Source of the DNA: Candidatus Gottesmanbacteria bacterium
Lineage (GTDB): Bacteria; Patescibacteriota; Microgenomatia; 2-02-FULL-39-11
DNA: 46,296 bases
NCBI GenBank assembly: GCA_016186795.1
Contig: JACPKY010000002.1
Location: 416,748-463,043, forward strand
Reading direction: 5' to 3'
Shown here: positions 2,777-43,057 of the stretch, piece by piece
How positions within the stretch are numbered: position 1 is the stretch's first letter
How the letters are laid out: every line of letters starts with the position of its first letter
Program-made: the position numbers and the translations under genes
Notes under the pieces: generated by a model
The model's input: the letters and a program-made list of their open reading frames with translations, nothing else
Told to the model about the DNA's origin: nothing
Databases searched by the model: none

Positions 2777-3769
2777 TTAACCCCACGTTTGCGGTAAATT
2801 TTTCCGGATCTCAATATTTTTAAATCGCTTACTTTTCCTTGCACCTTCCGTCTTTACCCACTGAGTCATCGCTTCCAAACCAACCGTAAGTGAGGTTTCT
2901 CTAAATTTCGGAAAAAACTTTTTGAATTTAGCATGATTTGAATAAGCGTTCTTTACTTCTTTCCGCTCACGTACGTGTCGAATAGGAACTCGTCTGCCCA
3001 TAATTTCCATAACTTCTTCTGCCAGTTCGTTAACAGAGGTGGGAATATCTGATCCTATGTTGAAAATCTGCCCGTGCGTCCTTTTGTTTGCAACAGACTG
3101 GGCAATACCGGGGATTATATCTTTGATATAAGAAAACGCCCGTATTTGTTTACCGTCTCCAAAGATAATCAGATCTTTTCCCTGAAGAATATTATTCATA
3201 AAAATGCCGATAACATTTCTATACTTATCACCAATATTTTGCCGCTCACCATAAACATTGTGAGGTCGAAAGATAACATAGGGTAATCCGAAAAGTGTAT
3301 GAGTTACTTCAAGTTCTTTCTCTACTGCATACTTTGCAATACCGTATGAATCCTCAGGCTTTGGTTTAAGATCTTCAGTCATTGGGAGTTTATTTGTTCC
3401 ATATACCGCAATGGAGGAGGTAAAAGCAAAACATCGAACATTGAAATTTACACTCGCATTTATGAGATGGATACTCCCAATAAGATTATTCATATAATTG
3501 AATCGCTTTATAAAATGACTTAACCCTTCTGCTGCATAGGCAGCAAGATGATACACATAAGTAAATCGGTACTTTCTGAATAACTGATTAATAAGCTGCC
3601 GATTCGTTATTGTTCCTTTAACAAATATCGCTTTTGGGTGGATATTCTTGACAAATCCTCCGCTCAAATCGTCAAGAACAACAACAGTAGAATCTCCATT
3701 CTCAATAATATAGTCCGCAAGATGTGAACCAATAAATCCAGCTCCCCCTGTAACAAGAATTGCTTTCAT
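2777..3769 (-). CDS. NAD-dependent NDP-sugar epimerase/dehydratase-family protein (extended SDR, epimerase-like active site)
   Basis: MKAILVTGGAGFIGSHL Rossmann motif; TSSIAVYG and YGIAKYAVE (S...YxxxK triad). ATGA overlap with the next gene at 3766-3769. Confidence 0.85.
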   Translation of the reverse strand: MKAILVTGGAGFIGSHLADYIIENGDSTVVVLDDLSGGFVKNIHPKAIFVKGTITNRQLINQLFRKYRFTYVYHLAAYAAEGLSHFIKRFNYMNNLIGSIHLINASVNFNVRCFAFTSSIAVYGTNKLPMTEDLKPKPEDSYGIAKYAVEKELEVTHTLFGLPYVIFRPHNVYGERQNIGDKYRNVIGIFMNNILQGKDLIIFGDGKQIRAFSYIKDIIPGIAQSVANKRTHGQIFNIGSDIPTSVNELAEEVMEIMGRRVPIRHVRERKEVKNAYSNHAKFKKFFPKFRETSLTVGLEAMTQWVKTEGARKSKRFKNIEIRKNLPQTWG

Positions 3770-4407
3770 GAGGAAAAAACCCGTGCAAAATATGTATTTC
3801 CAAGTCCTTCTACATCTCTACATTGATACTCTTCCACTTGCTTCATACCAAGTTTTTCAAAAATCCGTTTATAGTTCCGCGGAAAAGAACTCCAATGGAC
3901 ATGTTTTTCATTCTCTATGGTAATCAACGCTTTGTCAGTTATACGAACAATTTCATCAAATATCCAATAAGATTCAGGGTGAATGTGCTCCAAAACTGCC
4001 ATAGTGAAAGTAACATCAAACTGATTCTTTTGAAACAATCGAGTTTTCTCTTCAATCGTTGAATGGTAAATTTTTGCTTTCTTTGAAAGATCGGGATATG
4101 TTTTCCGTAACATCTTTATGGCTTTTTCATTCAACTCAACACCAGAAAGGTTGTTAAAGCCTGCCTGTTGTAGATAATGAAGATTTCTTCCAACGTTACA
4201 ACCAAGTTCCAGAATTGACGCTTTCTTGCTGGCGTAATTTTTTATTATATGAAGAAGAAATTTGCTTTTGTTATCGCCTTGAATGTAAAACTCTGGTTGA
4301 TTTTTCCAGGATGGATTTTGCCAATAGTGAACGAGGTCCTCTCTTGATTTCTGAATAGAGAAAGGAAAAACGTTTTTTAACAAAGGTATAATTGCGGAAA
4401 GGTTCAT
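3766..4407 (-). CDS. Class I SAM-dependent methyltransferase
   Basis: Motif I reads ILELGCNVGRNLHYL, followed by an acidic loop (GVELNEKAI) and FTMAVLEHI (post-I/II motifs). ATGA overlaps occur at both ends. Confidence 0.8.
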   Translation of the reverse strand: MNLSAIIPLLKNVFPFSIQKSREDLVHYWQNPSWKNQPEFYIQGDNKSKFLLHIIKNYASKKASILELGCNVGRNLHYLQQAGFNNLSGVELNEKAIKMLRKTYPDLSKKAKIYHSTIEEKTRLFQKNQFDVTFTMAVLEHIHPESYWIFDEIVRITDKALITIENEKHVHWSSFPRNYKRIFEKLGMKQVEEYQCRDVEGLGNTYFARVFSS

Positions 4408-5621
4408 AGGGTTACCGCATCCAAAACTCTTGTAATTCCCTTCACAGTATCGTCTATATCCCGATCTGATAGTGTTGGGTGGACCAAAAATAAAACAGCG
4501 GTCTCTCCGAGTTCTCTGGCAACAGGTAATGGTTTCTTAGGAATGCTTCTTTTGACCTCGGGGATTATCCGCCATACGTGTTCTCTATAGATTTCTGAAC
4601 ATGACCCATAAAACGCTGGTATTCCTTCGCGGTTTATCGCTTCTAATACTTTTTCCTTACTCCAACCTCTTTTAAGCTTTTCCAAGCGCAAATAAACGTA
4701 GTATTTATAGTATGAGTGAAAAACATACCGAGGTGGAATGGTAACTCTAAGAGATGGATACGTACTAAAAGTTGTATTGAAGATTCTGGCGATTTTTCTC
4801 CTTTTGGCAATCCATATATCAAGTTTTTTTAATTGTGCACGACCTATGGCTGCCTGAATTTCCGTCATTCGGAGATTCGTCCCCAGACTATCGTGTAGCC
4901 ACTTAAAACTATAGGTGTTATGCTTTTTGAGAGCCTTTTCTCTATTTTTCCCATGATCTTTATAACTCCAGGCTTTTTCATAATATTTTTTGTTTTTTAC
5001 AACAAGCATCCCCCCCTCCCCACCTGTTGTAACAATTTTGTCCTGACAGAAAGAAAAAGTAGCTGCGTCACCCCATGTCCCTACAAATCGATTCTTGTAC
5101 TTTGAACCGAGGGCTTGAGCGCAATCTTCAATAAGGTAAAGGTTATGACGTTGACATATTTCTTGTAGCAGATCAAGTTTGCAAGGCCATCCAGCAAGAT
5201 GGACAGCAATAATTGCCCTGGTTTTTTTTGTTATGGCGCTTCTTACCTTTTGCGGATCAACGTTTCCTGAATCTCTTTCAATATCAACAAAAATCGGAAG
5301 TGCCCCCACCGTTGCCACGCACGTCGCTGAGGCAATAAATGAGCGTGGAGAAACAATGACCTCATCCCCTTTCCCAATTCCAAGTATCCGACACGCTACT
5401 TCAAGCGCAGCTGTTCCATTAACAAGCGGCACGCAATATGTAATTCCTAAATACTTTGCAAAATCAGAGGAAAACTTCTCACACTCGTTTCCTGTCCATT
5501 GATTTACTTTTCCAGATCGAAGTATTCTCGCAACTGCACTAATCTCATCGTCTTCAAAATGGGGCCATGAGCTTATTCTTTTATGTCTGATTGGTTTACC
5601 ACCCTCAATTGCTAGTTTCAT
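4404..5621 (-). CDS. DegT/DnrJ/EryC1/StrS-family PLP-dependent NDP-ketosugar aminotransferase (PseC/LegC/SpsC-like role)
   Basis: NGTAALEVACRILGIGKGDEVIVSPRSF, AIIAVHLAGWP, IEDCAQALGS and FSFCQDKIVTTGGEGGMLV (Schiff-base lysine context) are typical of the family. It is translationally coupled to the acetyltransferase and methyltransferase genes. Confidence 0.85.
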   Translation of the reverse strand: MKLAIEGGKPIRHKRISSWPHFEDDEISAVARILRSGKVNQWTGNECEKFSSDFAKYLGITYCVPLVNGTAALEVACRILGIGKGDEVIVSPRSFIASATCVATVGALPIFVDIERDSGNVDPQKVRSAITKKTRAIIAVHLAGWPCKLDLLQEICQRHNLYLIEDCAQALGSKYKNRFVGTWGDAATFSFCQDKIVTTGGEGGMLVVKNKKYYEKAWSYKDHGKNREKALKKHNTYSFKWLHDSLGTNLRMTEIQAAIGRAQLKKLDIWIAKRRKIARIFNTTFSTYPSLRVTIPPRYVFHSYYKYYVYLRLEKLKRGWSKEKVLEAINREGIPAFYGSCSEIYREHVWRIIPEVKRSIPKKPLPVARELGETAVLFLVHPTLSDRDIDDTVKGITRVLDAVTL

Positions 5622-6259
5622 AGAGAAATTCTCTTTGCTGGAACTCCAACAACAGTTGTTTTTTCTTTTACATTGTGAGTAACCATTGCTCCACCGCCGA
5701 CGACTGCATCGTCTCCGATTGTCATATACTGCATCACTTTCGCACCTATCCCAACCATTGTTCGACGACCAATTTTTACTCCGCCACCAAGATGAGCTCC
5801 TGGCTGAACTGAACTAAATCTACCAATAATACAGTCATGATCGATACTTGATGATGTATTTACGATCGCTCCTTCTTCAATAACCGTTCCGATATTAATA
5901 ACTACTCCAGGGGCAATGAAAACTCCTTTCGAAATTTTTACGTGCGGGGAAATAGATGTACTGGGTGCAATACATGTACAAGGAAGTTGAGATGTACTTT
6001 TTCCAATTTTTTCAGAAATTTTCTCGCGGAGAACATTATCACCAATAGCAACAAAATAATTGACTTCATTTTCTTTTACGAATCTGATCATATCGTCCAA
6101 ACCACCCAAAACTTTCCATGCGATTCTTTTCGTACCAAAAAGAGTTTTATCGTCATCAAATAAACCTTCAACACGTATGTGGCGGGATTCAAATACGTCT
6201 GCTACAACTCGTGCATGTCCTCCTGCACCAAAGAGAACTACTCTTTTTATCTTCCTCAT
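5618..6259 (-). CDS. Left-handed beta-helix (hexapeptide) sugar N/O-acetyltransferase, NeuD/PglD/LegH-like
   Basis: N-terminal Rossmann-like VVLFGAGGHARVVADV is followed by hexapeptide repeats (IAPGVVINIGTVIEEGAIVNTSSSIDHDCIIGRFSSVQPGAHLGGGVKIG). Confidence 0.8.
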   Translation of the reverse strand: MRKIKRVVLFGAGGHARVVADVFESRHIRVEGLFDDDKTLFGTKRIAWKVLGGLDDMIRFVKENEVNYFVAIGDNVLREKISEKIGKSTSQLPCTCIAPSTSISPHVKISKGVFIAPGVVINIGTVIEEGAIVNTSSSIDHDCIIGRFSSVQPGAHLGGGVKIGRRTMVGIGAKVMQYMTIGDDAVVGGGAMVTHNVKEKTTVVGVPAKRISL

Positions 6260-7626
6260 TATTCTTTCTCCTCTTTTAGAAGTACTTGAAGATTACTGGA
6301 AAATGGAAGTATATCCTTCGCTTCTCCTTTTTCCAAATGGGATTTTAGATCTTGGATACCTTCTTTAAGTGTAATCGTTGAATGAAAGTTCAACTTTTTT
6401 TTGATTTTAGAAAAGTCTACTTGATAACTTCTTTTATCGTCGTTTGTGCTTTCTGTCTCAATTGGGATTCCATCAAATTCTTGAGATATTATATGCCCCA
6501 ATTCGTTGAGTTGAACATTCAACGAGTCCACCCCTACATTAAAAATCTCTCGATCCAGAGTTGAAATAGGGGTTTCAATTGTCTTTATAATGGCCCGGGC
6601 AACATCTTGGACATGGATGAAGGGTCGCCACTGCTTACCTGACTGGAGAATTATTTTCTTTTTATTTACTGCTGAAAGACAAAAAAAATTCGCAACCAAA
6701 TCGAAACGTGGTCTGAAACTCCAACCAAATACTGTTCCTAGACGAAGAACAGTCGGATAAAAATTCTTTATCGTATCAGATAGAATGAGTCTCTCGCATT
6801 CAAGCTTTGTCCGAGCATAGAGAGAGAGTGGATGAGGAATACTTTCCTCATGAAATTTCTTTTCTCCGAACCCATACACCGAACAACTTGATGTATAAAT
6901 AAATCTTTTGATACCCATATTTTTTGCGGTAAAGAGAACATTTTGTGTCCCCCCATAATTTACCGATACTGTATACTCTCTATCCAGAGAACACGCGGGG
7001 TCTCCCACAATTTCTCCGAGATGTACAACCGTATCTATATTTTCCATCGCCTCTCTTATAGAAACTATATTTCTTGTATCCCCTATATAGTGTTCAAACT
7101 TCTTCTTTCCATAAAGATCTCGAATAGAACTATCACCATAGAGGAGTGAATCAAAAACTCTGACCCTATAGTTTCTCTGAAGAAGTAATCGGACTAGTAC
7201 TGATCCTATATACCCTGCGCCTCCGGTAACGAGAACCCGATTATTTTTTGATTGTCCGTTTGTCTGAATTTTTTGGGGTATTTGTCCATGAAGGGAAAGT
7301 ATATCAATAATTCTTCGGTTTTCATCAATTATTGGAACATACATAATATTATTGTCATTGAGAAATTGAAGTGTTGAAGTATCAAGTGGTTGATACTTTT
7401 TTCTCAGACTATACGGATTGGGATTTGCAACGATCCTTACACTTAAACGTACACTTTTTCCCTGCAAAATGGCGCGGCGAATATCCCCGTCGGTTACTGA
7501 ACCTAAAAGTCTCCCTTCTTTATCAACTACAAAAAGAATCCCTTTCTTATTTTTTTCAAATTGGGCAAGTGTATCTCGTACAGTCTTGTTAGCCCCAATG
7601 AGCCATTTCTTAAGTTGTGTTTTCAT
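6259..7626 (-). CDS. Fusion protein: N-terminal CBS pair plus C-terminal extended-SDR NDP-sugar epimerase/oxidoreductase
   Basis: Residues ~1-115 have a CBS-pair pattern (ILFVVDKEGRLLGSVTDGDIRRAIL ... YVPIIDENRRIIDILS). From ~residue 130 the sequence reads VLVTGGAGYIGSVLV, TSSCSVYG and YARTKLECE (SDR triad). Confidence 0.75.
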   Translation of the reverse strand: MKTQLKKWLIGANKTVRDTLAQFEKNKKGILFVVDKEGRLLGSVTDGDIRRAILQGKSVRLSVRIVANPNPYSLRKKYQPLDTSTLQFLNDNNIMYVPIIDENRRIIDILSLHGQIPQKIQTNGQSKNNRVLVTGGAGYIGSVLVRLLLQRNYRVRVFDSLLYGDSSIRDLYGKKKFEHYIGDTRNIVSIREAMENIDTVVHLGEIVGDPACSLDREYTVSVNYGGTQNVLFTAKNMGIKRFIYTSSCSVYGFGEKKFHEESIPHPLSLYARTKLECERLILSDTIKNFYPTVLRLGTVFGWSFRPRFDLVANFFCLSAVNKKKIILQSGKQWRPFIHVQDVARAIIKTIETPISTLDREIFNVGVDSLNVQLNELGHIISQEFDGIPIETESTNDDKRSYQVDFSKIKKKLNFHSTITLKEGIQDLKSHLEKGEAKDILPFSSNLQVLLKEEKE

Positions 7627-8663
7627 GATATGTATGATCGAATAATTTCTACTACTCTTTCCTTTCCCCGCCCGTCAACAAGTTTCATCGCAAGCTTTCC
7701 CATACTCTCGCGTTTTAGTTTCTCTTGGAAAAGTCTCTCAAGCGCCATTCCAAGAGTTGAAGGTTTCACTTGTTTGTAAAGGCCAAAATTTATACACGCT
7801 TTCCTTTCTTCGAGAAAGGCAGCATTCTCGTTTTGTCTAGGAACTTGATTCATTGCCAAAAATGGAGTACCAATCACACTTGCTTCATATGCACCATTTC
7901 CAGCTGAACCAATTAAAACATCACTTTCTTTCATGGATGCTGCGATATTTTGAGAAGAAAGACTTGTCAAAAAATGCACCGTAAGACCGAGTCGATGAGC
8001 TAATTTTTCCAAGCTCGAATACCCTTTTTCTACAGGACTAATAATTATAGTCGTTGTCGGATGAAAAGTCACAAGAGAAATAGCTTCCAAAACTATTGAA
8101 ATGGCAGGAATTGAGTTTACCCCACCAAATAATACAAGAATGTTTGAAATCTTATTCTGATAAGAGCGGGCAAAGAAGCGGAAAGTCAGGAATGTTTCAT
8201 TGATGATAAAATATCGCAACCCGAAATATCTTTTGGGGAACACTGAAGATTTTGGGTATAATCTTTTTGACTGGTGAGGATTGCAACAGAATTGCACGTC
8301 GCAGTCAACATCCCTTGGATTTGGATCATCAGTTGTAGAAAAGATAGTTATCTTTTGCTCCCTGTAGAGAGAAGTGTAATCGGAATCTTTATCTTCTCGT
8401 AAAAGATCGATCATTATACCCTTTGGTTTTTTTTCTGATAGGTACCTTTTTAAAATATTCAGTGATCCATTCTTGTCTTTTGGAAGTACGACAATTTCTG
8501 CATGACTTCGCTTTTGAATAAATGGGAGTACGTGGAGAGGAGAACGAGTGAAAAAAATAGTTCGAATACCTTTATCTCGTAAATCATTCGCAATATCAGA
8601 CTGCCGACTTACATGTCCTAAGCCAATCCTAGTTGAAGCATCCGCACGAATAGCAAAATACAT
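7623..8663 (-). CDS. pseG: PseG/SpsG-family UDP-sugar hydrolase (nucleotidase step of nonulosonic acid synthesis)
   Basis: N-terminus MYFAIRADASTRIGLGHVSRQ matches the RADAS..IG.GH..R signature of PseG. The C-terminal GT-B lobe reads SDVLIGSAGNGAYEASVIGTPFLAM. It lies immediately upstream of the NeuB-family gene. The symbol is given at family level only. Confidence 0.7.
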   Translation of the reverse strand: MYFAIRADASTRIGLGHVSRQSDIANDLRDKGIRTIFFTRSPLHVLPFIQKRSHAEIVVLPKDKNGSLNILKRYLSEKKPKGIMIDLLREDKDSDYTSLYREQKITIFSTTDDPNPRDVDCDVQFCCNPHQSKRLYPKSSVFPKRYFGLRYFIINETFLTFRFFARSYQNKISNILVLFGGVNSIPAISIVLEAISLVTFHPTTTIIISPVEKGYSSLEKLAHRLGLTVHFLTSLSSQNIAASMKESDVLIGSAGNGAYEASVIGTPFLAMNQVPRQNENAAFLEERKACINFGLYKQVKPSTLGMALERLFQEKLKRESMGKLAMKLVDGRGKERVVEIIRSYIS

Positions 8664-8668
8664 ACAAT

Positions 8669-9724
8669 CTAGAGAAGATGCGAAGAAGTAATTTGTTGAT
8701 CTTTCTTTATTGACCGTACAAGTTTTCTCCCAATGAGATCCTTATATTTTAAAGGCAAGATACCACCTTCTTCTGGTCTTTTGTATGCAAGATCTTTTTC
8801 CGTCAGTACCTGTCCTTTTGCAAGATTTGTACGAGCTACAATCGATCTTCTAAATTCTTTCCGTTTCTCAATTTCATATGTTCCAACTACTCTTTCATAC
8901 TGACCCACCGCATGAAAAACATTCTTTACCTCTTTCACAATATATTCCATCTCAACGGGGTCAGCAGAAATTGAATGATCCCAACCAGGCAGAGTCTTAT
9001 CCAGTGTAAAATGCTTCTCGATAATACAGGCTCCGAAACTCACTGCTGCCACACTAAGTGACGTACCAACACTATGGTCACTAAATCCTACATGAACGCC
9101 AAAGGTTTTTCTTAGCATTTCTATATTTTTAAGATTTATATCTTCATATTTCGGTGGATAGACCGAAATACAGTGAAGAAGAACAGTGTCGATTTTTCCC
9201 CCCCGTAAGATCTCCATCGCTTGATCAATTTCCCAAAGTGTTGCCATACCGGTTGATAGAATAACTGGTTTCCCTTTTGTAGCAACATACTCTAGAAGCG
9301 GATGATTCGTTACGTCCATTGAAGCTATTTTAAAAAATGGCACATCAAGCTTATCGAGTAAATCAGCTGTTTTGGTATCAAATGGAGTACTTGCAAAAGC
9401 TATATGTTTTTTTTGGCAATAGGATAGAATCTCCTCATACTCCTTTGGTGTTAGAGAATATTCTTTTACCATTTCGTAAAGCGACCCAAAATGTTTATGC
9501 TCATCTCCAGGGTAAGTAAGATGTTTCTCATAGAGTGGAAGACTTATCAGATTTTCTGTAGTAAATGACTGGAATTTCACCACATTCACCCCACACGATA
9601 CTGCGGAATCTATAAGTTTGCGACAAAGATTCATGTCACCATTATGATTGGCACCAATATCGGCAATAATATAAGGTAAATGCCCTTCCCCGATATACGT
9701 ATTGTTCATTTTAATTGGCTTCAT
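8669..9724 (-). CDS. neuB: NeuB-family nonulosonic acid synthase (PseI/LegI/NeuB/SpsE-like) with a C-terminal SAF domain
   Basis: YIIADIGANHNGDMNLCRKLID, VKFQSF, FASTPFD, FKIASMD, PVILSTGMA, LLHCISVYP and GFSDHS are hallmark NeuB TIM-barrel motifs. The C-terminal RSIVARTNLAKGQVLTEKDL is the SAF domain. Substrate specificity cannot be read from the sequence. Confidence 0.9.
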   Translation of the reverse strand: MKPIKMNNTYIGEGHLPYIIADIGANHNGDMNLCRKLIDSAVSCGVNVVKFQSFTTENLISLPLYEKHLTYPGDEHKHFGSLYEMVKEYSLTPKEYEEILSYCQKKHIAFASTPFDTKTADLLDKLDVPFFKIASMDVTNHPLLEYVATKGKPVILSTGMATLWEIDQAMEILRGGKIDTVLLHCISVYPPKYEDINLKNIEMLRKTFGVHVGFSDHSVGTSLSVAAVSFGACIIEKHFTLDKTLPGWDHSISADPVEMEYIVKEVKNVFHAVGQYERVVGTYEIEKRKEFRRSIVARTNLAKGQVLTEKDLAYKRPEEGGILPLKYKDLIGRKLVRSIKKDQQITSSHLL

Positions 9725-9733
9725 GGCTTTTGG

Positions 9734-9762
9734 AGTGTATCATCACAAATTTTATCAGTCAA
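9734..9762 (-). promoter_or_regulatory. Possible internal sigma70-like promoter, TTGACT-17 nt-TACACT, ending 9 nt before ATG 9724 (neuB)
   Basis: The minus strand reads TTGACT (9762-9757), a 17-nt spacer, then TACACT (9739-9734). It lies in the 49-nt gap, the largest within the array. Confidence 0.3.
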
Positions 9763-9773
9763 CGTAACGGTAT

Positions 9774-11216
9774 TTACCCATTCAAAAGCTCAAAACACCG
9801 AGCTTCCATATAATCGAGAACATGTCTTTTATGAGGGAAGACATCTCTACTGTGGTAACTTCCTTTTTTCGGTTTGCCATTCGTACTATCAGAAAGTTTT
9901 CTAAGTGTTTCAATCAAACTTTGCACTGATTCTATTGGAACTGTTATTTCATCAATAATTCTGTGGCGGGTCGAATATTTTGAAGGAAGAAAACGAAGAG
10001 TATATTTTCCGATACCGGCTGAAACATATAGGCCTGTTGACCCACAGGCAACAACGACTTTGAGATTATCCCAGTTGAGCAAGTTTTTCAGTTCCTCGTG
10101 TGTAATTTTTATATTTGGGTAATTTTGCATATCTTCCGAACCTGGAATAGATATATGTTCATGGTAGGGCCGGGTTTTAATAAGAAAAAACCAGTGTGGG
10201 AAGAGACGTGCTGTCCTTTTTATCCATTCTAATGATAACCGCATTAAATCACCTGTATTAAGAACTGGATTTTGATCATATTCTGAGAGAAAAAGAAAAA
10301 CATTTTTCCCAAAAGATTTGCTTTTAAGATGTTTTTCTTGCTGAGTAACCTTATAATTCTTTTTTAATATCTCATCTATTTGGGCATTTCCAACTATCGT
10401 AAATAGTGGCATGTTTCCCTTTTGTATTTTCTTTAATTCATCTGCAACAGTTTTATTCCATACCCATACTTCACGAGAAATAATAGGAACCACCATGGTT
10501 GTCGGATGCTCATTGAAAAACCAAATGGTATGAATGTTTTTCTTTTCTCCGAGGAGTGCCAATTCTGCTCCAAACGGTACATGATCACCATTGGTGATTA
10601 TTATTTTCGGTTGCAAAAGGCCAAGAAGATGCCCAAGCGATCGAAAACGGAGGCGAGACAAAAAAAGTTGGTACCATAAAGAAAAAGGGTTATTAAGTAT
10701 TTTTTGAACTTCTCTATTCATTTTTTGTGAACGAAACTGAAGATAGAGCATATCCAAAAATGAAGAAGCAAATGATAGAAGAAATTGAAACGTACTTCCT
10801 CCAAAAGCGATGTATTTTGACATTGAAGGAAAAGAAGAAATATTTATCTCCTTTTCCGATGGATTTACTGTTTCAAATCGATCCGGAGAAAATCTGATTA
10901 CTCGAAGATCTTTTTGCGCAAGTTTTTCTCCCAACCTATCTAGGGTAGGCTGGAAACTCGGTTTGCGACTTGATGAAAAAATAAGAACATCGCAAGAGAT
11001 TTTGGATAAATTAAGCGGATGGATTTTCTGAAAATTAGAAAGAACCTCTTTAATAAACTGGGGAAAATTATTCACTTTGCCCTCTCTAAGAAGTAGAGGA
11101 AGCCGAGCCGCAAACAAACTCTGGTGGTTTTTCTCTATAGGACCTATGTGCTGAATATAATTTTCAAAATGAGAAGCAATGTGAAATCCGTCGGGGAGTA
11201 AGGGCTTTGCATCCAT
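9774..11216 (-). CDS. Uncharacterised 480-aa protein, putative GT-B-like transferase sitting between the cytidylyltransferase and the NulO synthase
   Basis: Intact ORF with GGAG 10 nt upstream of its ATG. There are no TM segments. The C-terminal lobe reads WFFLIKTRPYHEH...LKVVVACGSTGLYVSAGIGKYTLRF, which resembles the (K/R)xHP plus G-rich donor lobe of capsule-synthesis/TagF-type GT-B enzymes. Family not recognised with confidence. Confidence 0.45.
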   Translation of the reverse strand: MDAKPLLPDGFHIASHFENYIQHIGPIEKNHQSLFAARLPLLLREGKVNNFPQFIKEVLSNFQKIHPLNLSKISCDVLIFSSSRKPSFQPTLDRLGEKLAQKDLRVIRFSPDRFETVNPSEKEINISSFPSMSKYIAFGGSTFQFLLSFASSFLDMLYLQFRSQKMNREVQKILNNPFSLWYQLFLSRLRFRSLGHLLGLLQPKIIITNGDHVPFGAELALLGEKKNIHTIWFFNEHPTTMVVPIISREVWVWNKTVADELKKIQKGNMPLFTIVGNAQIDEILKKNYKVTQQEKHLKSKSFGKNVFLFLSEYDQNPVLNTGDLMRLSLEWIKRTARLFPHWFFLIKTRPYHEHISIPGSEDMQNYPNIKITHEELKNLLNWDNLKVVVACGSTGLYVSAGIGKYTLRFLPSKYSTRHRIIDEITVPIESVQSLIETLRKLSDSTNGKPKKGSYHSRDVFPHKRHVLDYMEARCFELLNG

Positions 11217-11221
11217 GAAAA

Positions 11222-11989
11222 TTATACTCCAAATATTCGCTTTTTGTATTGAACTTCTGTCTCATACCGATTACTATTGAGTGCTTTTACCGCAGGGTGA
11301 GTATCGAGAAACCTTAAGATATCGTCCAACCCAAAAAGTGGATTCTGAGGATATAGTGCCTCAATTATTTTTTTCACTTGCATCAAATCTTCAGGATAAT
11401 CTAATACGATCCGATATTTGTCATGAATATTGGAGGAGTTCTCAATATTTCCGATTCGAAAATGGTGAGGATTTTTCCAAATGAAACTCGTAACGTGTTC
11501 TTTATCTTCTGATTTAAGATCTTGACTTAAGTATATTCGTTCTAACGCTTCACGGTGTACAATTTCAATTTGCATTCCTTCTGGGAATGTAGAGGGGTGA
11601 TTATTACTTACATAATCGTATCCTTGAAATTTTTGTTCAAATTCTTTGATAAGAAATGCGCATAACTTTGGATCAATCAAAGGACTATCTCCCCAGAATT
11701 TCACAAAGTAGGTATCCGGAAATAAATTTGTACACTGACATATTCTATCCAAAACATTCTCTTCACTCCCACGAAAGACATCCAATCCTAAATGTCGGCA
11801 GTAACCTGCTAATTCATCATCACTTGCATTTACTGTTGTTGCAACAATAATTTTACTTACCATGGGAATTGCATGAACTCGTTCAATGAGAAAGTAAAAA
11901 ATGGGTCTACCCAAAATCTTTCGCATTGCTTTATTTCGAAGCCGTGAAGAGCCATTTCGGATCTGTACAATTGCGGGATACTTGGCCAT
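11222..11989 (-). CDS. SpsF/PseF-type cytidylyltransferase (CMP-nonulosonic acid synthetase candidate)
   Basis: N-terminus AIVQIRNGSSRLRNKAMRKILGRP is the acylneuraminate-cytidylyltransferase-type P-loop-like motif (R.GS.R...K). The length (255 aa) and the NulO context fit. Confidence 0.75.
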   Translation of the reverse strand: MAKYPAIVQIRNGSSRLRNKAMRKILGRPIFYFLIERVHAIPMVSKIIVATTVNASDDELAGYCRHLGLDVFRGSEENVLDRICQCTNLFPDTYFVKFWGDSPLIDPKLCAFLIKEFEQKFQGYDYVSNNHPSTFPEGMQIEIVHREALERIYLSQDLKSEDKEHVTSFIWKNPHHFRIGNIENSSNIHDKYRIVLDYPEDLMQVKKIIEALYPQNPLFGLDDILRFLDTHPAVKALNSNRYETEVQYKKRIFGV

Positions 11990-11997
11990 TGCAAAAA

Positions 11998-12714
11998 TTA
12001 TTTCTCTACTAAAACAATATAGTAAGATGTTTTGCGCTTTCCTGGAACTTCATCAATTGTCAATTTTTTAAAACTCATATCCCAGGTGTGGATGCGAACT
12101 GTTCCAAACGGTAGAAACATTGCAGAAATATCACTCTTCGTAAATGCATGAAACGGAAGCGTAACGGAGTGAGTACCAGTTTTTTGTGAAAGAAATATTG
12201 AGTCTTTTACAAGATAAGTATTTTCCCCAATCTTTTTCGCATGGTCGAATGCACAATCTGTTATTCTCTTCAACAGGAAAAATCCTACACCACCTTTCTT
12301 TAATACACGATAGCATTCTTTACTCGCCTTGAGTATATCTTCCCAAGAGTTATTTACCAGTGTTGCATGCTCAATAATTCCATCAAAAAAATTATCAACG
12401 TATGGAAGAGACGTAATAGGTCCGAGCCGAATATCTGCTTCGCATTTTTCCCTTTTAAGCCAATTCTCTGCGTACTTCACTGCAACGATACTTCCGTCAA
12501 TTCCATAAGCTTTAAATCCCATTTGCCGAAGAAGAATTATGTGACGCCCAATCCCACACCCTAAGTCCAAAATTCGGTAACGTGACCTCCTGCTTTTGGG
12601 AAAGCTACTAACAAGAAAACGAACAATATTTTCATCAGGATAGATAGGCCTGTAATCAGGATTCATATGATACATATCAAAGATGCGCGGGTTGTAAGTC
12701 GGAATACCTTGCAT
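11998..12714 (-). CDS. Class I SAM-dependent methyltransferase
   Basis: Motif I reads ILDLGCGIGRHIILL, then YGIDGS and GIIEHATL. Confidence 0.8.
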   Translation of the reverse strand: MQGIPTYNPRIFDMYHMNPDYRPIYPDENIVRFLVSSFPKSRRSRYRILDLGCGIGRHIILLRQMGFKAYGIDGSIVAVKYAENWLKREKCEADIRLGPITSLPYVDNFFDGIIEHATLVNNSWEDILKASKECYRVLKKGGVGFFLLKRITDCAFDHAKKIGENTYLVKDSIFLSQKTGTHSVTLPFHAFTKSDISAMFLPFGTVRIHTWDMSFKKLTIDEVPGKRKTSYYIVLVEK

Positions 12715-12715
12715 G

Positions 12716-13885
12716 CTATAAATCTTTCACAGCAGTTTGAATTGATGAAGCAATATATTCAATATTTTGCTGCGACAGGTTAATCATAATTGGTATTGCA
12801 ATTGCCCTTTGGAGTAACTCATAACTTTTGGGCCATAACTTGAGATAATTTTTCTCGGCATATCGTGGATATACGTCCCAAATATGATCCCAACGACCTG
12901 CAAAATGCCATTTCACTGCTCCAGGGAGAAGTTTAAATCCAATTTTCTTCCCTGTAAGATAGTCTGATACCTTTTTGCGTTGTTTCGCCGTAGGGAGAAA
13001 GAACGTTAAGCTGTCTCCTACTTCTTCTCCTTCTTTTGGAACTTTTCGAAACTCAATTTCAGGAATACCCTTTAGTAAATTCTCTAACTTTTTGTAATTT
13101 TTCTTGACCTGAGATAAAGCCTTCGGTAATTTCCTCAGTTGGGCAAGACCTACTGCTCCTTGAAGTTCCATCATACGGAAATTAAAGCCACTCCGTGTTG
13201 CTGTATCTTCCCCTCGAGGGAACTTAGGATTATCTTCATGACCATGATCACAGTAAGCACGCGCTGCAAGATAAAGTTTTTTAGTAGGTACAACTATCAT
13301 CCCTCCATCTCCTGTTGTCAGCGTTTTTCCAAAATCAAAGCTGAATGCTCCTGCATCTCCGAAAGTTCCGCAAAACTGACCATTATACTTTGCCCCTAGA
13401 GACTGTGCCGTATCTTCTAAAAGAAAAAGACGATACTTCTTTGCAATGCGGGCAATTTCAGATATTCTCGCCGGTACTCCCATCATATGTACTACCCAAA
13501 TCGCTTTTGTTTTCTTCGTTATTCTCTTCTCAAGATCAATGGGGTCCATATTTAACGTCTCATCGACTTCGCAAATGACAGGTGTTGCCCCAGTCTCCAA
13601 TATTGCTTCAACGGTTGCAACAAACGTAAAGCTTTGTGTAATAACTTCATCACCCTTACCTATCCCAAATATTTTATTTATTGCAAAAAGAGACGCGGTA
13701 CCTGAAGTAGTCGCTTGAGCATATTGTGCATGAAGAAACTCTGCAAACTTATTCTCGAACTCAACAACTTTGTACGTATTGTTTCGAAGAGCTTCAAAAC
13801 CGTATCGGAATAAAACACCACCGCTATCAAAAACCGAATTTACTTCTTGGCGTTCTTCACTGTCTATAATTTCATATCCTGGCAT
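12716..13885 (-). CDS. DegT/DnrJ/EryC1-family PLP aminotransferase (second copy; KdnA-like context)
   Basis: TSGTASLFAINKIFGIGKGDEVITQSFTF, LLEDTAQSLGA and FSFDFGKTLTTGDGGMIVV (catalytic Lys context). The ORF track starts at TTG 13906. I prefer ATG 13885 (MPGYEIID...) because a perfect AGGAGG lies 9 nt upstream of it. Confidence 0.85.
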   Translation of the reverse strand: MPGYEIIDSEERQEVNSVFDSGGVLFRYGFEALRNNTYKVVEFENKFAEFLHAQYAQATTSGTASLFAINKIFGIGKGDEVITQSFTFVATVEAILETGATPVICEVDETLNMDPIDLEKRITKKTKAIWVVHMMGVPARISEIARIAKKYRLFLLEDTAQSLGAKYNGQFCGTFGDAGAFSFDFGKTLTTGDGGMIVVPTKKLYLAARAYCDHGHEDNPKFPRGEDTATRSGFNFRMMELQGAVGLAQLRKLPKALSQVKKNYKKLENLLKGIPEIEFRKVPKEGEEVGDSLTFFLPTAKQRKKVSDYLTGKKIGFKLLPGAVKWHFAGRWDHIWDVYPRYAEKNYLKLWPKSYELLQRAIAIPIMINLSQQNIEYIASSIQTAVKDL

Positions 13886-13894
13886 ATAATCGTT

Positions 13895-13900
13895 CCTCCT
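13895..13900 (-). promoter_or_regulatory. Shine-Dalgarno sequence AGGAGG for the second aminotransferase gene
   Basis: The minus strand reads AGGAGGAACGATTATATG, with AGGAGG 9 nt upstream of ATG 13885 and overlapping the TAG stop of the Fe-ADH gene. Confidence 0.6.
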
Positions 13901-15062
13901 AGTCAATCATACTATGTAACATAGCTCGAATATTTTTTTCTGTCATGGGTATCGGATTTTGCTCAACTGCACTCCACAAGAATTTTAAGTGGTCAATGAT
14001 TGAATCGATATCAGATTTTTGCACCCCAAATGTATTAAGTTTTTCAGGAATATCAAGATTTGCACATAAGAGTTGGAAACAGTGAAGAAACTTCTGACTT
14101 TTGTCTTTTCCGATGCATTTCTTTTGAACTGATGGATCAACCAAATCATACAGGGTTTCATATCCTTTATACCCGTTTTCGATGTTAAATTTGATTACGG
14201 GGTACAAAAAAACCGACCCGGCAAGACCGTGTGTTACGCGGAAAAGTGTTCCAATTGGATACGATAGTACACCTGCAGGACCTGCAGCAGAGTTAAAAAG
14301 AGCAATTCCAGCTAGATACGCACCCAAAGAAACTTGCGTACGAAGATTAATATCCTCAGGATTTTTTACAACTCTTTCCAGATTATTAAAAATCAAAGGA
14401 AAAGCTTCCTCTGAGAATAGTTTCGATAGTAGAGAGTGCTTTTTTGCTACAAAACTTTCAAGAGTATGTGTCAAAGCATCCATGCCAGATGCAATTGTTA
14501 CAGAGGATGGACAAGATAGGGTAAGAAGTGGGTCGATCACTGAAAAAACCGGTAGGTAAAGAGGCGAATTAATACCAAATTTTCGTTTTTCCTTTCTGTC
14601 AATGAAAACAGCATACGGTGTAATTTCACTCCCAGATCCGGCAGTTGATGGAATAAGTATAAGAGGAATTCCTGAATTTTTAATAAGACCAAATCCTCTA
14701 TATGCAATAGCTCTCTTTTTATTCGTCACCAAAACAGATATTGCCTTTGCAACATCCATCGTACTCCCCCCACCAATCCCTAAAAGACAATCAATTTTTT
14801 TATCAAATTTTCCACGAATAGAATCTAAATAATCATACGTGGGCTCCATCATGTCATTTATAAAATACGGGTTAATTGTGTACAACTTTCGCAATTTCTT
14901 TATAAGTTGTTGCCAATACTCACCCTTTTCAACGTGAAGATCAATAATCACTCCAACACGGTTAAAACCCTTTTCTTCCAAAAATGGAATAATTTCATTA
15001 AGACTTCCAGGACCAAATGAAAGATTGGTATGCAATCGAAAGTAAAGCAGTGAGTCTTTCAT
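13899..15062 (-). CDS. Iron-containing (class III) alcohol dehydrogenase family oxidoreductase
   Basis: LLGIGGGSTMDVAKA, IPSTAGSGSEITP, SGMDALTHTLES and VTHGLAGSV correspond to the GGGSxxDxAK, PTTAGTGSE and metal-binding His motifs of the Fe-ADH family. Confidence 0.85.
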   Translation of the reverse strand: MKDSLLYFRLHTNLSFGPGSLNEIIPFLEEKGFNRVGVIIDLHVEKGEYWQQLIKKLRKLYTINPYFINDMMEPTYDYLDSIRGKFDKKIDCLLGIGGGSTMDVAKAISVLVTNKKRAIAYRGFGLIKNSGIPLILIPSTAGSGSEITPYAVFIDRKEKRKFGINSPLYLPVFSVIDPLLTLSCPSSVTIASGMDALTHTLESFVAKKHSLLSKLFSEEAFPLIFNNLERVVKNPEDINLRTQVSLGAYLAGIALFNSAAGPAGVLSYPIGTLFRVTHGLAGSVFLYPVIKFNIENGYKGYETLYDLVDPSVQKKCIGKDKSQKFLHCFQLLCANLDIPEKLNTFGVQKSDIDSIIDHLKFLWSAVEQNPIPMTEKNIRAMLHSMID

Positions 15063-15078
15063 ACACGTAATTTCATAA

Positions 15079-16347
15079 TTACTCTGAAAGAGTATCGATC
15101 GTGTATTTTGGCTTTATAACAAGCAGGCTCTCTTTTTTTTGCATATTGTACCCCAAGGCTCCAATTTCACTATCTTCTGAAAGCTCGATGTTTATCCCCG
15201 TACCAAAATTAGGATGATTATGATGTGCTTTCATATCTAATCCAACTGCAGCTCGAACAATATATCTACCACAATTTAAAACAGATCCTGGAAAAATAAC
15301 GCGTAGGTAGGATTTTCCTTTTTCCCAAGAAGAAAATTTCGGATCTTCTTGTGTATTCCAATACCAAAGAAGAGTCCCATCGGTTGAAGCAATAACAACA
15401 ATAATATCGATTTTTCCACGACTTGTATCTCGAATAAGGAAATCTACCTCAATAGTTATATCATCTGCTGGATTAAGAATTGAAGTAATTCTATCAGATG
15501 CGTCTTTTATACCTACACGCAGTAATTGACCTGCTTTCGTATCATCTATAGGATATGTGATTTCTCCACTCTTTGATAAATTTTTTTGCAGATAATAATC
15601 AACAACTTTATTGGGTTTGCCGATCTTTGTAAGAATTCCATTCTCCAAAAGAATACATTTTTGCACAAGTCGAATGATTGCAGCCATGTTATGACTAACA
15701 AAAAGAACAGTTCTTCCTTGTGAGGCAACATTATCCATTTTGCTAAGACACTTCTTTTGAAAATTTACATCACCGACGGCCAAAACTTCATCGACAATAA
15801 GTATCTCAGGTTCCAAGTGTGCAGCTACAGCAAAAGCAAGACGGGTATACATTCCTGAAGAGTAAAATTTTACTGGCGTATCTATAAACCTTGGTATTTC
15901 AGCAAAATCAATGATCTCATCAAATTTCCGCCTAATTTCTTTATTTTTCATTCCAAGTATTGCACCGTTTAGATATACATTTTCTCTGCCTGTTAACTCT
16001 GGATGAAAACCAGTTCCTACTTCCAGAAGACTTGCGACTCTCCCCCGTAAAATAATTTTTCCCTTTGTAGGAGGTGTTATTTGACTTAGAATTTTCAAAA
16101 GCGTACTTTTCCCGGCTCCATTTCGGCCTATTATTCCTACAATCTCTCCACTGCCTATCTTGAATGATACGTCCTTGAGCGCCCATATATGTTGATTGGA
16201 AGAAGCTTTTAAGGGAGAATCCTTTTTACTTACAAAGGGAGAGTGAAAAAAATCCATAACGGTATCCCGTAGGGAATAGTATGGGAGAACTTTCCCTATC
16301 CGATACTGTTTTGAGATGTTTTGTATTTCAATAATTGGTTTTGTCAT
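15079..16347 (-). CDS. wzt: Polysaccharide ABC exporter ATP-binding protein (Wzt/TagH type) with a ~170-aa C-terminal extension
   Basis: Walker A GIIGRNGAGKSTLLK, signature YSSGMYTRLAFA and Walker B ILIVDEVLAVGD. The sequence beyond ~residue 250 is beta-rich (ITIEVDFLIRD..., YLRVIFPGSVLNCGRYIVR), as in Wzt C-terminal glycan-binding domains. Confidence 0.85.
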   Translation of the reverse strand: MTKPIIEIQNISKQYRIGKVLPYYSLRDTVMDFFHSPFVSKKDSPLKASSNQHIWALKDVSFKIGSGEIVGIIGRNGAGKSTLLKILSQITPPTKGKIILRGRVASLLEVGTGFHPELTGRENVYLNGAILGMKNKEIRRKFDEIIDFAEIPRFIDTPVKFYSSGMYTRLAFAVAAHLEPEILIVDEVLAVGDVNFQKKCLSKMDNVASQGRTVLFVSHNMAAIIRLVQKCILLENGILTKIGKPNKVVDYYLQKNLSKSGEITYPIDDTKAGQLLRVGIKDASDRITSILNPADDITIEVDFLIRDTSRGKIDIIVVIASTDGTLLWYWNTQEDPKFSSWEKGKSYLRVIFPGSVLNCGRYIVRAAVGLDMKAHHNHPNFGTGINIELSEDSEIGALGYNMQKKESLLVIKPKYTIDTLSE

Positions 16348-16352
16348 GCACG

Positions 16353-17180
16353 TTATACAATATCTGCAAAATATTGCTGTGTTTTATTGAAGTACCATAG
16401 TCCAATAATAAATACAACAAAAGCAAAAAATATTGCAAAAACTATTTGAGAAAGCGTTATAACGGTCGTTCCTGAGAATGGCCACCTCACAAGTTCAATA
16501 ACAATTGCCATAGGATTAAATGACATGATGAATCTATTTCTCTCGGACAAAATAGCCATTGGATAGACAACCGGAGTAACATAGAAGGATATTTGAATAA
16601 AAAAGGGTAGAATATAACGTACGTCTCGAAATTTTACATTTAAAGAAGAGAGTATAAGTCCAAGACCTGCAGCAAGTGTTGAAGATATTAGTAGCGCTAA
16701 AAGAAACGGAATCACTGACCAAAGATGCGGAATGTATCCCAAAAAAACTGCGACAATAAGTAAAATAGCGAAATTAATAAGAAAATCAACAAATCGAGTA
16801 ATAACACTAGCAATAATAAGAATTATTTTGGGGAAGTATATTTTTTTGATGATGGATTGATTCCCTATGATGCTGTCAATCGATTCTGACAGAGCTGTTG
16901 AATAAAAAGACCAGTAAACGATACCACAAAGAACAAAAAGTGTATACGGAAGATTTCCCGAGGGTATTTTGGCCACATTGCCAAATAGCACGGTAAAAAT
17001 GAGCATGGTGACGAGTGGCTGAAAGATAACCCATAAAATTCCGAGTATAGTCTGTTTATATCGCACCTTCAAATCCCTCCAGACGAAAACAAAGAAAAGC
17101 TCGCGAAATCTCCAAATCTCAGAAATATTAAGTAAAGATTGTGATGATTTTGGGACAATGGTGATTTCTTTTATTTCCAT
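16353..17180 (-). CDS. wzm: ABC-2 type polysaccharide exporter permease (Wzm/TagG type)
   Basis: 275 aa with about 6 hydrophobic segments. The N-terminal ELFFVFVWRDLKVRYKQTILGILWVIFQPL is the ABC-2 signature. It lies directly upstream of wzt (5-nt gap). Confidence 0.85.
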   Translation of the reverse strand: MEIKEITIVPKSSQSLLNISEIWRFRELFFVFVWRDLKVRYKQTILGILWVIFQPLVTMLIFTVLFGNVAKIPSGNLPYTLFVLCGIVYWSFYSTALSESIDSIIGNQSIIKKIYFPKIILIIASVITRFVDFLINFAILLIVAVFLGYIPHLWSVIPFLLALLISSTLAAGLGLILSSLNVKFRDVRYILPFFIQISFYVTPVVYPMAILSERNRFIMSFNPMAIVIELVRWPFSGTTVITLSQIVFAIFFAFVVFIIGLWYFNKTQQYFADIV

Positions 17181-26051: not shown

Positions 26052-26079
26052 AGTATATAGGTTTTTATAAAATTTTCAA
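26052..26079 (-). promoter_or_regulatory. Possible internal sigma70-like promoter, TTGAAA-16 nt-TATACT, ending 11 nt before ATG 26040
   Basis: The minus strand reads TTGAAA (26079-26074), a 16-nt spacer, then TATACT (26057-26052). It lies in the 35-nt gap before the GME-like gene. In AT-rich sequence this could be a chance match. Confidence 0.3.
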
Positions 26080-27596: not shown

Positions 27597-27605
27597 GAAA
27601 GGTAG

Positions 27606-43044: not shown

Positions 43045-43057
43045 AGCAACTGTTTGA

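Follow-up and report, generated by a model that had tools for sequence, protein, structure and literature searches.

Nonulosonic acids (NulOs) and bacillosamine decorate flagella, S-layers, capsules and spores, and the pathways that produce them are used to predict surface chemistry from genomes. To our knowledge, every characterised NulO or bacillosamine route begins with a 4,6-dehydratase of known catalytic signature. How such a pathway might begin when no enzyme of this kind can be recognised is the question raised by a 46,296-nucleotide stretch of DNA from Candidatus Gottesmanbacteria (contig JACPKY010000002.1 of assembly GCA_016186795.1; the whole stretch is referred to here as the window, and coordinates are positions within it), which carries a NulO module at 4404-11989. 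The place of the first enzyme in this module is held by a protein, here called CBS-SDR, in which a pair of CBS domains precedes an extended short-chain dehydrogenase/reductase (SDR) domain. On the basis of gene context, fusions and domain architecture, it appears probable that the clade to which CBS-SDR belongs supplies a 4-keto sugar to the neighbouring aminotransferase and so is the functional occupant of the slot taken elsewhere by LegB, PseB or PglF. That CBS-SDR does this as a non-canonical dehydratase feeding an Sps-like, legionaminic acid (Leg)-type pathway is a weaker proposition, resting on the identity of the partner enzymes, to which we give an even chance.

Gene content of the module and the active site of CBS-SDR

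Families were assigned by Pfam and NCBIfam profile searches with curated cut-offs and by a sequence search of the PDB. The first-pass annotation of the window had described a six-gene NulO module on the minus strand, where all long open reading frames (ORFs) of the window lie; its ORF coordinates and family assignments were all confirmed (Table 1), with the addition of a 480-residue ORF that it had not listed. Start and stop codons overlap or abut throughout 2777-8663, with 4-bp overlaps at 5618-5621 and 7623-7626 and a 1-bp overlap at 6259, and the remaining gaps are of 5 bp (8664-8668), 49 bp (9725-9773) and 5 bp (11217-11221). All five Sps/Leg-type activities, namely C4 aminotransferase, N-acetyltransferase, NDP-sugar hydrolase, NeuB-family synthase and CMP-transferase, are thus encoded together and coupled, and the translational coupling of CBS-SDR between the acetyltransferase and the hydrolase speaks for its role as the first enzyme. 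The operon extends leftwards beyond 4404 into a methyltransferase gene and then a gene for a GalE-like SDR, both of which we include in the unit because of the same overlapping or abutting codons. Another methyltransferase, a second DegT protein and an Fe-dependent alcohol dehydrogenase are encoded upstream of the module in the order of transcription.

The aminotransferase scores 249 bits with the PseC model and 226 bits with the LegC model, both below cut-off, and is most similar to Pcryo_0638 (PDB 7L7X; 391 bits, 45% identity over 385 residues), with which it shares the Lys of the Schiff base, the Gln in contact with the C2 acetamido group, and the Phe and Gly stacked on the uracil. The assayed substrate of Pcryo_0638 is UDP-4-keto-6-deoxy-GlcNAc, from which it forms the precursor of bacillosamine (PMC8040287). 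The acetyltransferase matches PglD (PDB 3BSS) at 119 bits. Residues 1-283 of the hydrolase align to positions 1-279 of the 280-position TIGR03590 model, and its match to the PseG structure (PDB 3HBM) is 30 bits. The synthase scores 363 bits with the NeuB/LegI model TIGR03569 (cut-off 400) and 294 bits with the PseI model (cut-off 340); its PDB matches are NmNeuB (181 bits), PseI (170 bits) and SpsE (1VLI, 159 bits), and it is 52% identical to the NeuB of locus L088 and 48% identical to that of a LegB-type Paenibacillus cluster. The first-pass annotation had called this set a mosaic, with a left-handed beta-helix (LbH) acetyltransferase, a PseG-like hydrolase and an SpsF-like cytidylyltransferase, and had cited the sps genes of Bacillus subtilis in this connection. 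The mosaic is real and the sps parallel holds: CMP-legionaminic acid is made from UDP-GlcNAc by SpsM, C, D, G, E and F. SpsM was assigned as a dehydratase acting at C-4/C-6 with a preference for UDP-GlcNAc, and its gene lies at a locus of its own (Dubois et al. 2020, PMC7439481); that study tested pglF, legB, pseB and pen-pal for complementation of an spsM deletion. The module resembles this precedent in its predicted UDP linkage and in its DegT protein, acetyltransferase, PseG-like hydrolase (SpsG), NeuB-family synthase (SpsE) and SpsF-type cytidylyltransferase; it differs in having the in-operon CBS-SDR, with its SSCSVYG strand, in the place of the first enzyme, and in its additional methyltransferases, second DegT protein, Fe-dependent alcohol dehydrogenase and 480-residue ORF.

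Table 1. Features of the window, with the profile matches or motifs on which they were assigned
Feature	Position	Strand	Basis and remarks
GalE-like SDR	2777-3769	-	GalE model 145 bits; motif TSSIAVYG; 4-bp overlap with neighbour
S-adenosylmethionine (SAM) methyltransferase	3766-4407	-	4-bp overlaps with neighbouring genes
DegT-family UDP-4-keto-sugar C4 aminotransferase (Pcryo_0638 type)	4404-5621	-	PF01041 316 bits
LbH N-acetyltransferase, PglD/NeuD type (PglD_N + Hexapep)	5618-6259	-	TIGR03570 211 bits (cut-off 161)
CBS-SDR, 455 residues	6259-7626	-	Pfam Epimerase PF01370 151 bits; CBS 39 bits
CBS-SDR: YARTK, catalytic Tyr270 and Lys274	6805-6819	-	translation confirmed; both invariant in alignment of 31 homologues
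CBS-SDR: active-site strand SSCSVYG, S246-G252	6871-6891	-	translation confirmed
CBS-SDR: GDPAC motif with Asp209	6991-7005	-	translation confirmed
CBS-SDR: N-terminal CBS pair, residues 1-111	7294-7626	-	PF00571 match, residues 11-54
PseG/SpsG-like nucleotide-sugar hydrolase	7623-8663	-	TIGR03590 (PseG) 105 bits, below cut-off of 153.6
NeuB-family nonulosonic acid synthase (NeuB + SAF)	8669-9724	-	PF03102 288 bits
480-residue ORF	9774-11216	-	no family match
SpsF-type cytidylyltransferase (CMP-NulO synthetase)	11222-11989	-	CTP_transf_3, PF02348 74 bits
Accessory genes (methyltransferase, second DegT, Fe-dependent alcohol dehydrogenase)	11998-15062	-	Pfam, NCBIfam
Second DegT	12716-13906	-
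Fe-dependent alcohol dehydrogenase	13899-15062	-
Wzm/Wzt-type ABC exporter	15079-17180	-	beyond the alcohol dehydrogenase, upstream in transcription order
RmlD-like SDR	21478-22389	-	142 bits
NodU/CmcH-type carbamoyltransferase	22389-24077	-
Fcl-like SDR	24074-25087	-	298 bits
SDR resembling GDP-mannose 3,5-epimerase	25018-26040	-	motif ASSGCVYP
SDR, best model match RmlB	29122-30129	-	156 bits (cut-off 365); motif GTSTQIG
GalE-like SDR	37200-38132	-	gmd model 46 bits

The seven SDRs encoded in the window carry the active-site strands TSSIAVYG, TSSCSVYG (CBS-SDR), LSTECVFDG, IGTVCSYP, ASSGCVYP, IGTSTQIG and ASSGGVIYG, exactly as first read. None of them has T-D-E, T-S-E or T-D-K, and none reaches the cut-off of any dehydratase model: the highest scores are at most 157 bits for RmlB (cut-off 365), at most 131 bits for LegB (475), 52 bits for PseB (408), reached by CBS-SDR, and 46 bits for gmd (415). 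That the window holds no recognisable 4,6-dehydratase is therefore upheld. Neither a dehydratase nor a further extended SDR is encoded in the flanking parts of the contig (about 20.7 kb to the left and 10 kb to the right, or about 77 kb with the window), which hold only glycosyltransferases, methyltransferases, carbamoyltransferases, GT-C membrane proteins and a second NeuB module. The first-pass annotation had allowed that CBS-SDR might score as a 4,6-dehydratase or that a dehydratase might lie adjacent on the contig; neither proved to be the case, the latter within these 77 kb.

CBS-SDR shows the features of an extended SDR, with a GGAGYIG Rossmann motif, S247, Y270 and K274, and its AlphaFold2 model (predicted local distance difference test score 88) superposes on SDR structures. 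It exceeds the cut-off of no NCBIfam model, scoring 102 bits with GalE TIGR01179 (cut-off 262), 83 bits with RmlB TIGR01181 (365), 82 bits with LegB TIGR04180 (475), 52 bits with PseB TIGR03589 (408) and 47 bits with FnlA TIGR04130 (730), and the clade gives a partial PF02719 match, confined to the Rossmann region, of 41 bits. Assignment as a canonical 4,6-dehydratase was rejected because the protein fails both the RmlB/GMD/LegB and the PseB/PglF/CapD families on motif and score. Assignment as a GalE-type C4-epimerase was rejected on its score and because the conserved adjacent aminotransferase is a partner that consumes a keto sugar. In alignment with reference enzymes, C248 and S249 stand where the acid/base residues of a dehydratase would be: the corresponding strands are TSTSEVYG in LegB, S(S/T)DEVYG in RmlB, STDKA in PseB and NTNSGYG in Cj1427, so that the Ser/Thr of the catalytic strand opens a triplet that reads S/T-C-S in the clade, T-S-E in LegB, T-D-E in RmlB, T-D-K in PseB and T-N-S in Cj1427. 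G-D-P is found in about 228 of 240 homologues, and its Asp209 is absent from Cj1427, which has Ala, and from the LegB-like protein and RmlB in the alignment. Cys248 and Asp209 are candidates for an alternative acid/base pair, a suggestion from residue conservation that we offer only as a lead.

The closest PDB sequence match of CBS-SDR is Cj1427 (6VO6/6VO8, tied to that protein by their Foldseek entry titles), with 133 bits against 103 for the runner-up, and in a Foldseek search with the model, Cj1427 entries occupy ranks 1-6 (TM-score 0.89-0.94, 30-32% identity), with C4-epimerases next. The clade has the VGxPxC and RxRxDLxVN motifs in common with Cj1427, and the SDR domain of CBS-SDR likewise lacks acidic residues after the catalytic Ser/Thr. 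At the active site, however, they differ, with [S/T]-C-S-[V/N]-Y-G and G-D-P on one side and T-N-S-G-Y-G and Ala on the other; moreover, Cj1427 has no CBS or membrane domain, acts on a GDP-heptose, and is followed in its pathway by an epimerase and a reductase rather than an aminotransferase. The N-terminal region of CBS-SDR is folded confidently in the AlphaFold2 model and is separated from the SDR domain by a low-confidence linker (residues 115-126); its residues 12-110 match the C-terminal CBS pair of the KpsF/GutQ model TIGR00393 at 43 bits. In PtmE-like proteins such a pair is found on the nucleotidyltransferase; its place here, on the presumed committed enzyme, suggests that it probably provides feedback control.

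Relatives of CBS-SDR and their genomic neighbourhoods

The motif of the clade, S-[ST]-C-S-x-Y-G, was defined from an alignment of 31 homologues and from how often it occurs in 240 homologues from databases and in 80 loci. When one genome per species was scanned with the motif as seed, at least 591 genomes proved to contain a relative; 80 SDR-centred loci (labelled L followed by a number) were examined, along with a further 80 centred on NeuB, giving 160 related loci in all. Motif counts were cross-checked with NCBIfam where it mattered. The Cys of the motif is kept in 238 of the 240 homologues and in 79 of the 80 SDR-centred loci. In 39 of these loci a same-strand DegT gene is no more than 300 bp away, and in 55 no more than 3 kb; 34 encode a PglC-like phosphoglycosyl transferase and about 13-15 encode NeuB. 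An SDR with a canonical dehydratase motif occurs within 10 kb in only six of the 80; those in L034 and L052 are true RmlB, the "TSE" protein of L111 is a true GMD, and that of L014 is a near-LegB with 454 bits, as judged with NCBIfam. The 280-residue "TDK" protein of L054 was dismissed as a PseB candidate, because no NCBIfam model matched it at E <= 1e-40 and the loose regular expression had over-called.

Complete Leg-type cassettes in which the clade member is the sole SDR are present in L009 (Undinarchaeales), L032 (Yanofskybacteria), L054 (Thermoplasmatales), L005 (Woesearchaeota) and L049 (Peregrinibacteria), all with the gene order CBS-SDR, DegT, small LbH acetyltransferase, NeuC-like Epimerase_2, NeuB and CTP_transf_3. 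L147 (Nitrospinota) combines the SDR with LegC, a NeuC-like protein, NeuB and a PtmE-like CBS-nucleotidyltransferase. L034 (Planctomycetales) has a set of the pseudaminic acid (Pse) type, consisting of a cupin, CBS-SDR, PseC, an SpsF-like protein, a PseG+GNAT fusion and NeuB. Homologues of the cytidylyltransferase of the window directly follow CBS-SDR and DegT in L019, L034 and L066. A 145-residue cupin (FdtA/RmlC-like) is encoded directly upstream of CBS-SDR in L019, L033 (6587-7021) and L034; together with the PseC and the PseG+GNAT fusion of L034, this arrangement fits a division of the two activities of PseB between the SDR and a separate C5 epimerase.

The partner aminotransferases are informative. 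Beside clade members, LegC scores 549 bits in L090, 519 in L147 and 479 in L111 (cut-off 420), and PseC scores 510 bits in L034 (cut-off 423.5). In control clusters (L091, L144), LegC is paired with a true LegB; the LegB scores are 514 bits in L091, 522 in L101 and 490 in L144, against the cut-off of 475. The clade members in the compared clusters exceed no NCBIfam cut-off and score 81-110 bits with the LegB model where scored. With such partners above their cut-offs, these clusters look like cases of in-place displacement of LegB alone. Relative to the GDP-linked Leg pathway of Campylobacter jejuni (PtmE, LegB, LegC, LegH, LegG, LegI, LegF; TIGR04180/TIGR04181), L090, L111 and L147 keep LegC and NeuB, and L147 and L111 also the CBS-bearing PtmE-like nucleotidyltransferase, with a NeuC-like gene in L147, whereas LegB, with its T-S-E, is replaced in all three by an STCS-type SDR. 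The window departs further from that pathway in having a PseG-like rather than a NeuC-like hydrolase, in lacking PtmE, and in carrying on its SDR the CBS pair that the Leg pathway has on PtmE. The NeuB proteins of clusters with the clade SDR are 42-58% identical to those of LegB-type clusters and 43-57% identical among themselves; the two groups interleave in a neighbour-joining tree, which lacks bootstrap values and is indicative only, with the NeuB of L090 pairing with that of Paenibacillus xylanilyticus (L091).

In domain architecture, 26 of the 80 members carry CBS domains, and 49 have instead predicted N-terminal transmembrane helices in the manner of PglF (about four in the examples inspected). 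In L092, one ORF encodes a CBS pair, a PtmE-like NTP_transferase domain and the clade SDR, a fusion predicted from its domains to join the maker of NDP-GlcNAc to its user. There are further similarities to the UDP-N,N'-diacetylbacillosamine (UDP-diNAcBac) routes PglF-PglE-PglD of C. jejuni and Pcryo_0612/0638/0637: the aminotransferase of the window resembles Pcryo_0638 and its acetyltransferase PglD, and bacterial clade members have, like PglF, about four N-terminal transmembrane helices and are encoded beside PglC-like transferases. PglF itself, however, belongs to the Polysacc_synt_2 enzymes and has S-T-D-K-A at its active site, whereas the clade is a different lineage of extended SDRs.

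Among haloarchaea, Halorubrum sp. PV6 produces N-formyl-legionaminic acid, and its "LegB", HrrPV6_1047 (GenBank MH673034), adjoins LegC (PMC6137143); the 120 best homologues of a CBS-SDR from haloarchaea include no Halorubrum protein. A locus search with the Halomarina CBS-SDR as single protein recovered, apart from that protein, only two weak hits over part of the length (29-31% identity), both from unrelated genomes. An exact 48-mer of the window has no match in the GTDB representative genomes. We found no description of the clade in the searchable literature, including under the combination of CBS, dehydratase and NulO and under Cj1427-like enzymes in Leg pathways. So far, "epimerase/dehydratase" genes that occupy this slot are likely to have been assumed, without comment, to be LegB.

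Proposed pathway and competing explanations

In the reading that we favour, CBS-SDR would oxidise C4 of UDP-GlcNAc with bound NAD+ and most probably complete the 4,6-dehydration with a non-canonical set of residues, for which Cys248 and Asp209 are the candidates, yielding UDP-4-keto-6-deoxy-GlcNAc. The Pcryo_0638-type aminotransferase would convert this to the 4-amino sugar and the PglD-type acetyltransferase would produce UDP-diNAcBac, from which the PseG/SpsG-like hydrolase would free the hexose; NeuB would then join the hexose to phosphoenolpyruvate, and the SpsF-type enzyme would form the CMP-sugar. Judging from the enzyme families, the product is most likely a legionaminic-type nonulosonic acid with acetamido groups at C5 and C7. 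Our best guess is a UDP-linked route in the D-gluco series, since no PtmE-like nucleotidyltransferase is encoded in the window and the contacts to UDP are preserved in the aminotransferase. A 6-deoxy product is favoured by the LegC and PseC partners, the interleaved NeuB proteins and the Pcryo_0638-like aminotransferase.

Several observations weigh against dehydration by CBS-SDR. The D-E, S-E or D-K that follows the catalytic Thr in every characterised NDP-hexose 4,6-dehydratase is absent from it, and its nearest relative by both sequence and structure leaves the C6-OH in place, C4-epimerases being the next. The aminotransferases might tolerate a C6-OH, and the aminotransferase, hydrolase and synthase of the module each fall below curated cut-offs. 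L014 encodes a membrane-anchored clade member as well as its near-LegB, and L108 encodes PseB (536 bits) and PseC (500 bits) right next to a Leg-type set with CBS-SDR, the two sets in the latter looking like separate pathways. Dehydratase genes can also be sited far from the pathways they serve, as are spsM in B. subtilis (PMC7439481) and 0612 in P. cryohalolentis (PMC8040287). Finally, the clade is known from sequence and context, so dehydration is a predicted activity.

The first-pass annotation had drawn two inferences from the missing dehydratase, either that it is encoded elsewhere or that the hexose keeps its C6-OH and the NulO a C9-OH; both are retained here at low probability, next to an option that it had omitted, namely that CBS-SDR is itself the enzyme that forms the 4-keto sugar. 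The retention of C9-OH would follow if CBS-SDR were a C4-dehydrogenase like Cj1427, with no dehydration and a path from UDP-4-amino-4-deoxy-GlcNAc to a 5,7-diacetamido-3,5,7-trideoxy NulO. Its bound NADH could then, by analogy, be re-oxidised by the 2-oxoglutarate that the aminotransferase releases, making the amination a redox-neutral, "hydrogen-borrowing" one. Cj1427 does not dehydrate: it makes GDP-4-keto-heptose with the C6-OH in place, its NADH being recycled by 2-oxoglutarate (PMC10680097). As the top match of CBS-SDR by sequence and by structure (TM-score 0.91-0.94, 31-32% identity), with the two sequence motifs in common, it supports this explanation, along with the missing acid/base residues of a dehydratase and the conserved pairing with an aminotransferase. 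We nevertheless regard it as unlikely, given that the partner aminotransferases elsewhere are LegC or PseC above their cut-offs, that the one in the window is 45% identical to an enzyme characterised on a 6-deoxy substrate, and that the NeuB homologues form no separate clade. In addition, Cys248 and Asp209 are conserved in the clade and not in Cj1427, which suggests extra chemistry, and a natural 3,5,7-trideoxy diamino NulO was not reported in the literature searched.

We also doubt that the 1.118-Mb genome encodes, at some other place, a canonical UDP-GlcNAc 4,6-dehydratase (PglF/SpsM/PseB or LegB type) and that CBS-SDR performs, for example, C4 epimerisation or ketoreduction. The remote siting of spsM and Pcryo_0612 provides precedents for such an arrangement, C4-epimerases are the structural neighbours next after Cj1427, and in L014 and L108 members of the clade are found alongside canonical dehydratases; moreover, the Fcl-, RmlD- and TylC3-like genes near the module normally need GMD or RmlB products, for which the 77 kb encode no source, and this suggests dehydratases elsewhere. 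What it leaves unexplained is why the SDR adjoins an aminotransferase across phyla, why members of the clade have PglF-like membrane anchors or are fused to a homologue of GlcNAc-1-P nucleotidyltransferases, and why complete Leg-type cassettes contain the clade SDR as their sole SDR. It is very improbable, in our view, that there is no 5,7-diamino NulO pathway at all, with NeuB using another aldose and the aminotransferase, acetyltransferase and SDR making a separate bacillosamine-like hexose. The SDR-DegT pair does occur with a PglC-like transferase and without NeuB in 34 of the 80 loci, the hydrolase and synthase of the window lie below their cut-offs, and a second NeuB module without an aminotransferase lies about 10 kb to the left; but the genes across 2777-8663 are joined by start/stop overlaps with the synthase following after 5 bp, the same co-linear set including NeuB recurs in at least 13 loci of unrelated phyla, and a PseG-like hydrolase and a CMP-transferase would have no role in a route to a hexose only. 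To all readings other than a dehydratase, a C4-dehydrogenase or a dehydratase encoded elsewhere we assign, taken together, a small probability.

Surrounding genes and biological implications

The module lies in a larger glycan island. Searches of Pfam, NCBIfam and the PDB gave no match for its 480-residue ORF, and the 160 related loci contain no homologue of it; from its position in a NulO operon one might guess at a CMP-sugar transferase. Close orthologues of the second DegT protein (402-408 bits) and of the Fe-dependent alcohol dehydrogenase (348-350 bits) accompany CBS-SDR NulO clusters in L108 (Omnitrophica) and L017 (Aenigmatarchaeota), a recurrence that suggests a conserved accessory sugar modification. 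The GalE-like SDR coupled to the module has a 361-bit homologue in the Acidobacteriota locus L092 (20199-21050), about 6 kb from the CBS-NTP_transferase-SDR fusion, and may be functionally part of such pathways.

Further along the window, RmlD-like and Fcl-like SDRs are followed by one whose ASSGCVYP motif we take to be that of a GDP-mannose 3,5-epimerase (GME)-like enzyme. For these three (21478-26040), and for a TylC3-type C-methyltransferase in the left flank (Methyltransf_13/14; locus L171, 1855-3084), no GMD, RmlB or RmlC partner is encoded in the 77 kb, and this implies either that canonical dehydratases are encoded elsewhere in the genome or that non-canonical 4-keto sugars are used. 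With its listed TTG start, the Fcl-like ORF has a 70-bp overlap with the gene upstream, and its Pfam match begins at residue 33; the true start is probably an internal Met near residue 23. Two NodU/CmcH-type carbamoyltransferases, one in the window and one in L171 (7056-8891), point to carbamoylated sugars. Six large membrane proteins are encoded in two tandem runs (26076-29108 and 38142-44620), with weak or no matches to PMT/PMT_2 (GT-C); the adjacent pair at 26076-27596 and 27606-29108 is of similar size and matches the PMT_2 profile, and further PMT_2 and YfhO genes lie just to the right of the window. The second NeuB-family protein, P0241 (354 residues), is encoded on the same contig about 10-21 kb to the left (L171 10001-21065) and scores 300 bits with the NeuB model and 246 bits with the PseI model, both below cut-off. 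Its gene is followed by those for an adh_short SDR, an aldehyde dehydrogenase, an unassigned protein of 669 residues, CTP_transf_3, a transketolase-like protein, an unassigned protein of 433 residues and a GT11 fucosyltransferase-like protein, and the region looks like a second ulosonic-acid module without an aminotransferase.

A small-genome Candidatus Gottesmanbacteria bacterium thus holds genes for a sialic-acid-like surface sugar with an unusual candidate for the first enzyme. The pathway itself is a known one; its first enzyme appears to be of a type not recognised before, from a clade found in both prokaryotic domains. The less likely reading, a sugar with C9-OH, has its own consequences. 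If the clade oxidises C4 of NDP-GlcNAc without loss of the C6-OH, as Cj1427 does with GDP-heptose, which we think unlikely for the clade, 6-hydroxy sugars would form a parallel series that is so far undescribed: in their hundreds, bacteria and archaea, among them the candidate phyla radiation (CPR), DPANN, Asgard, haloarchaea, Planctomycetes and Acidobacteria, would make 2,4-diacetamido-2,4-dideoxyhexoses and C9-OH 5,7-diacetamido-3,5,7-trideoxy NulOs, a family not yet seen in nature, and dehydrogenase and aminotransferase might be coupled through 2-oxoglutarate and glutamate. If instead the members of the clade are dehydratases, as we favour, they would represent a new catalytic solution for 4,6-dehydration, and their recognition would correct annotation and pathway prediction in many uncultured lineages.

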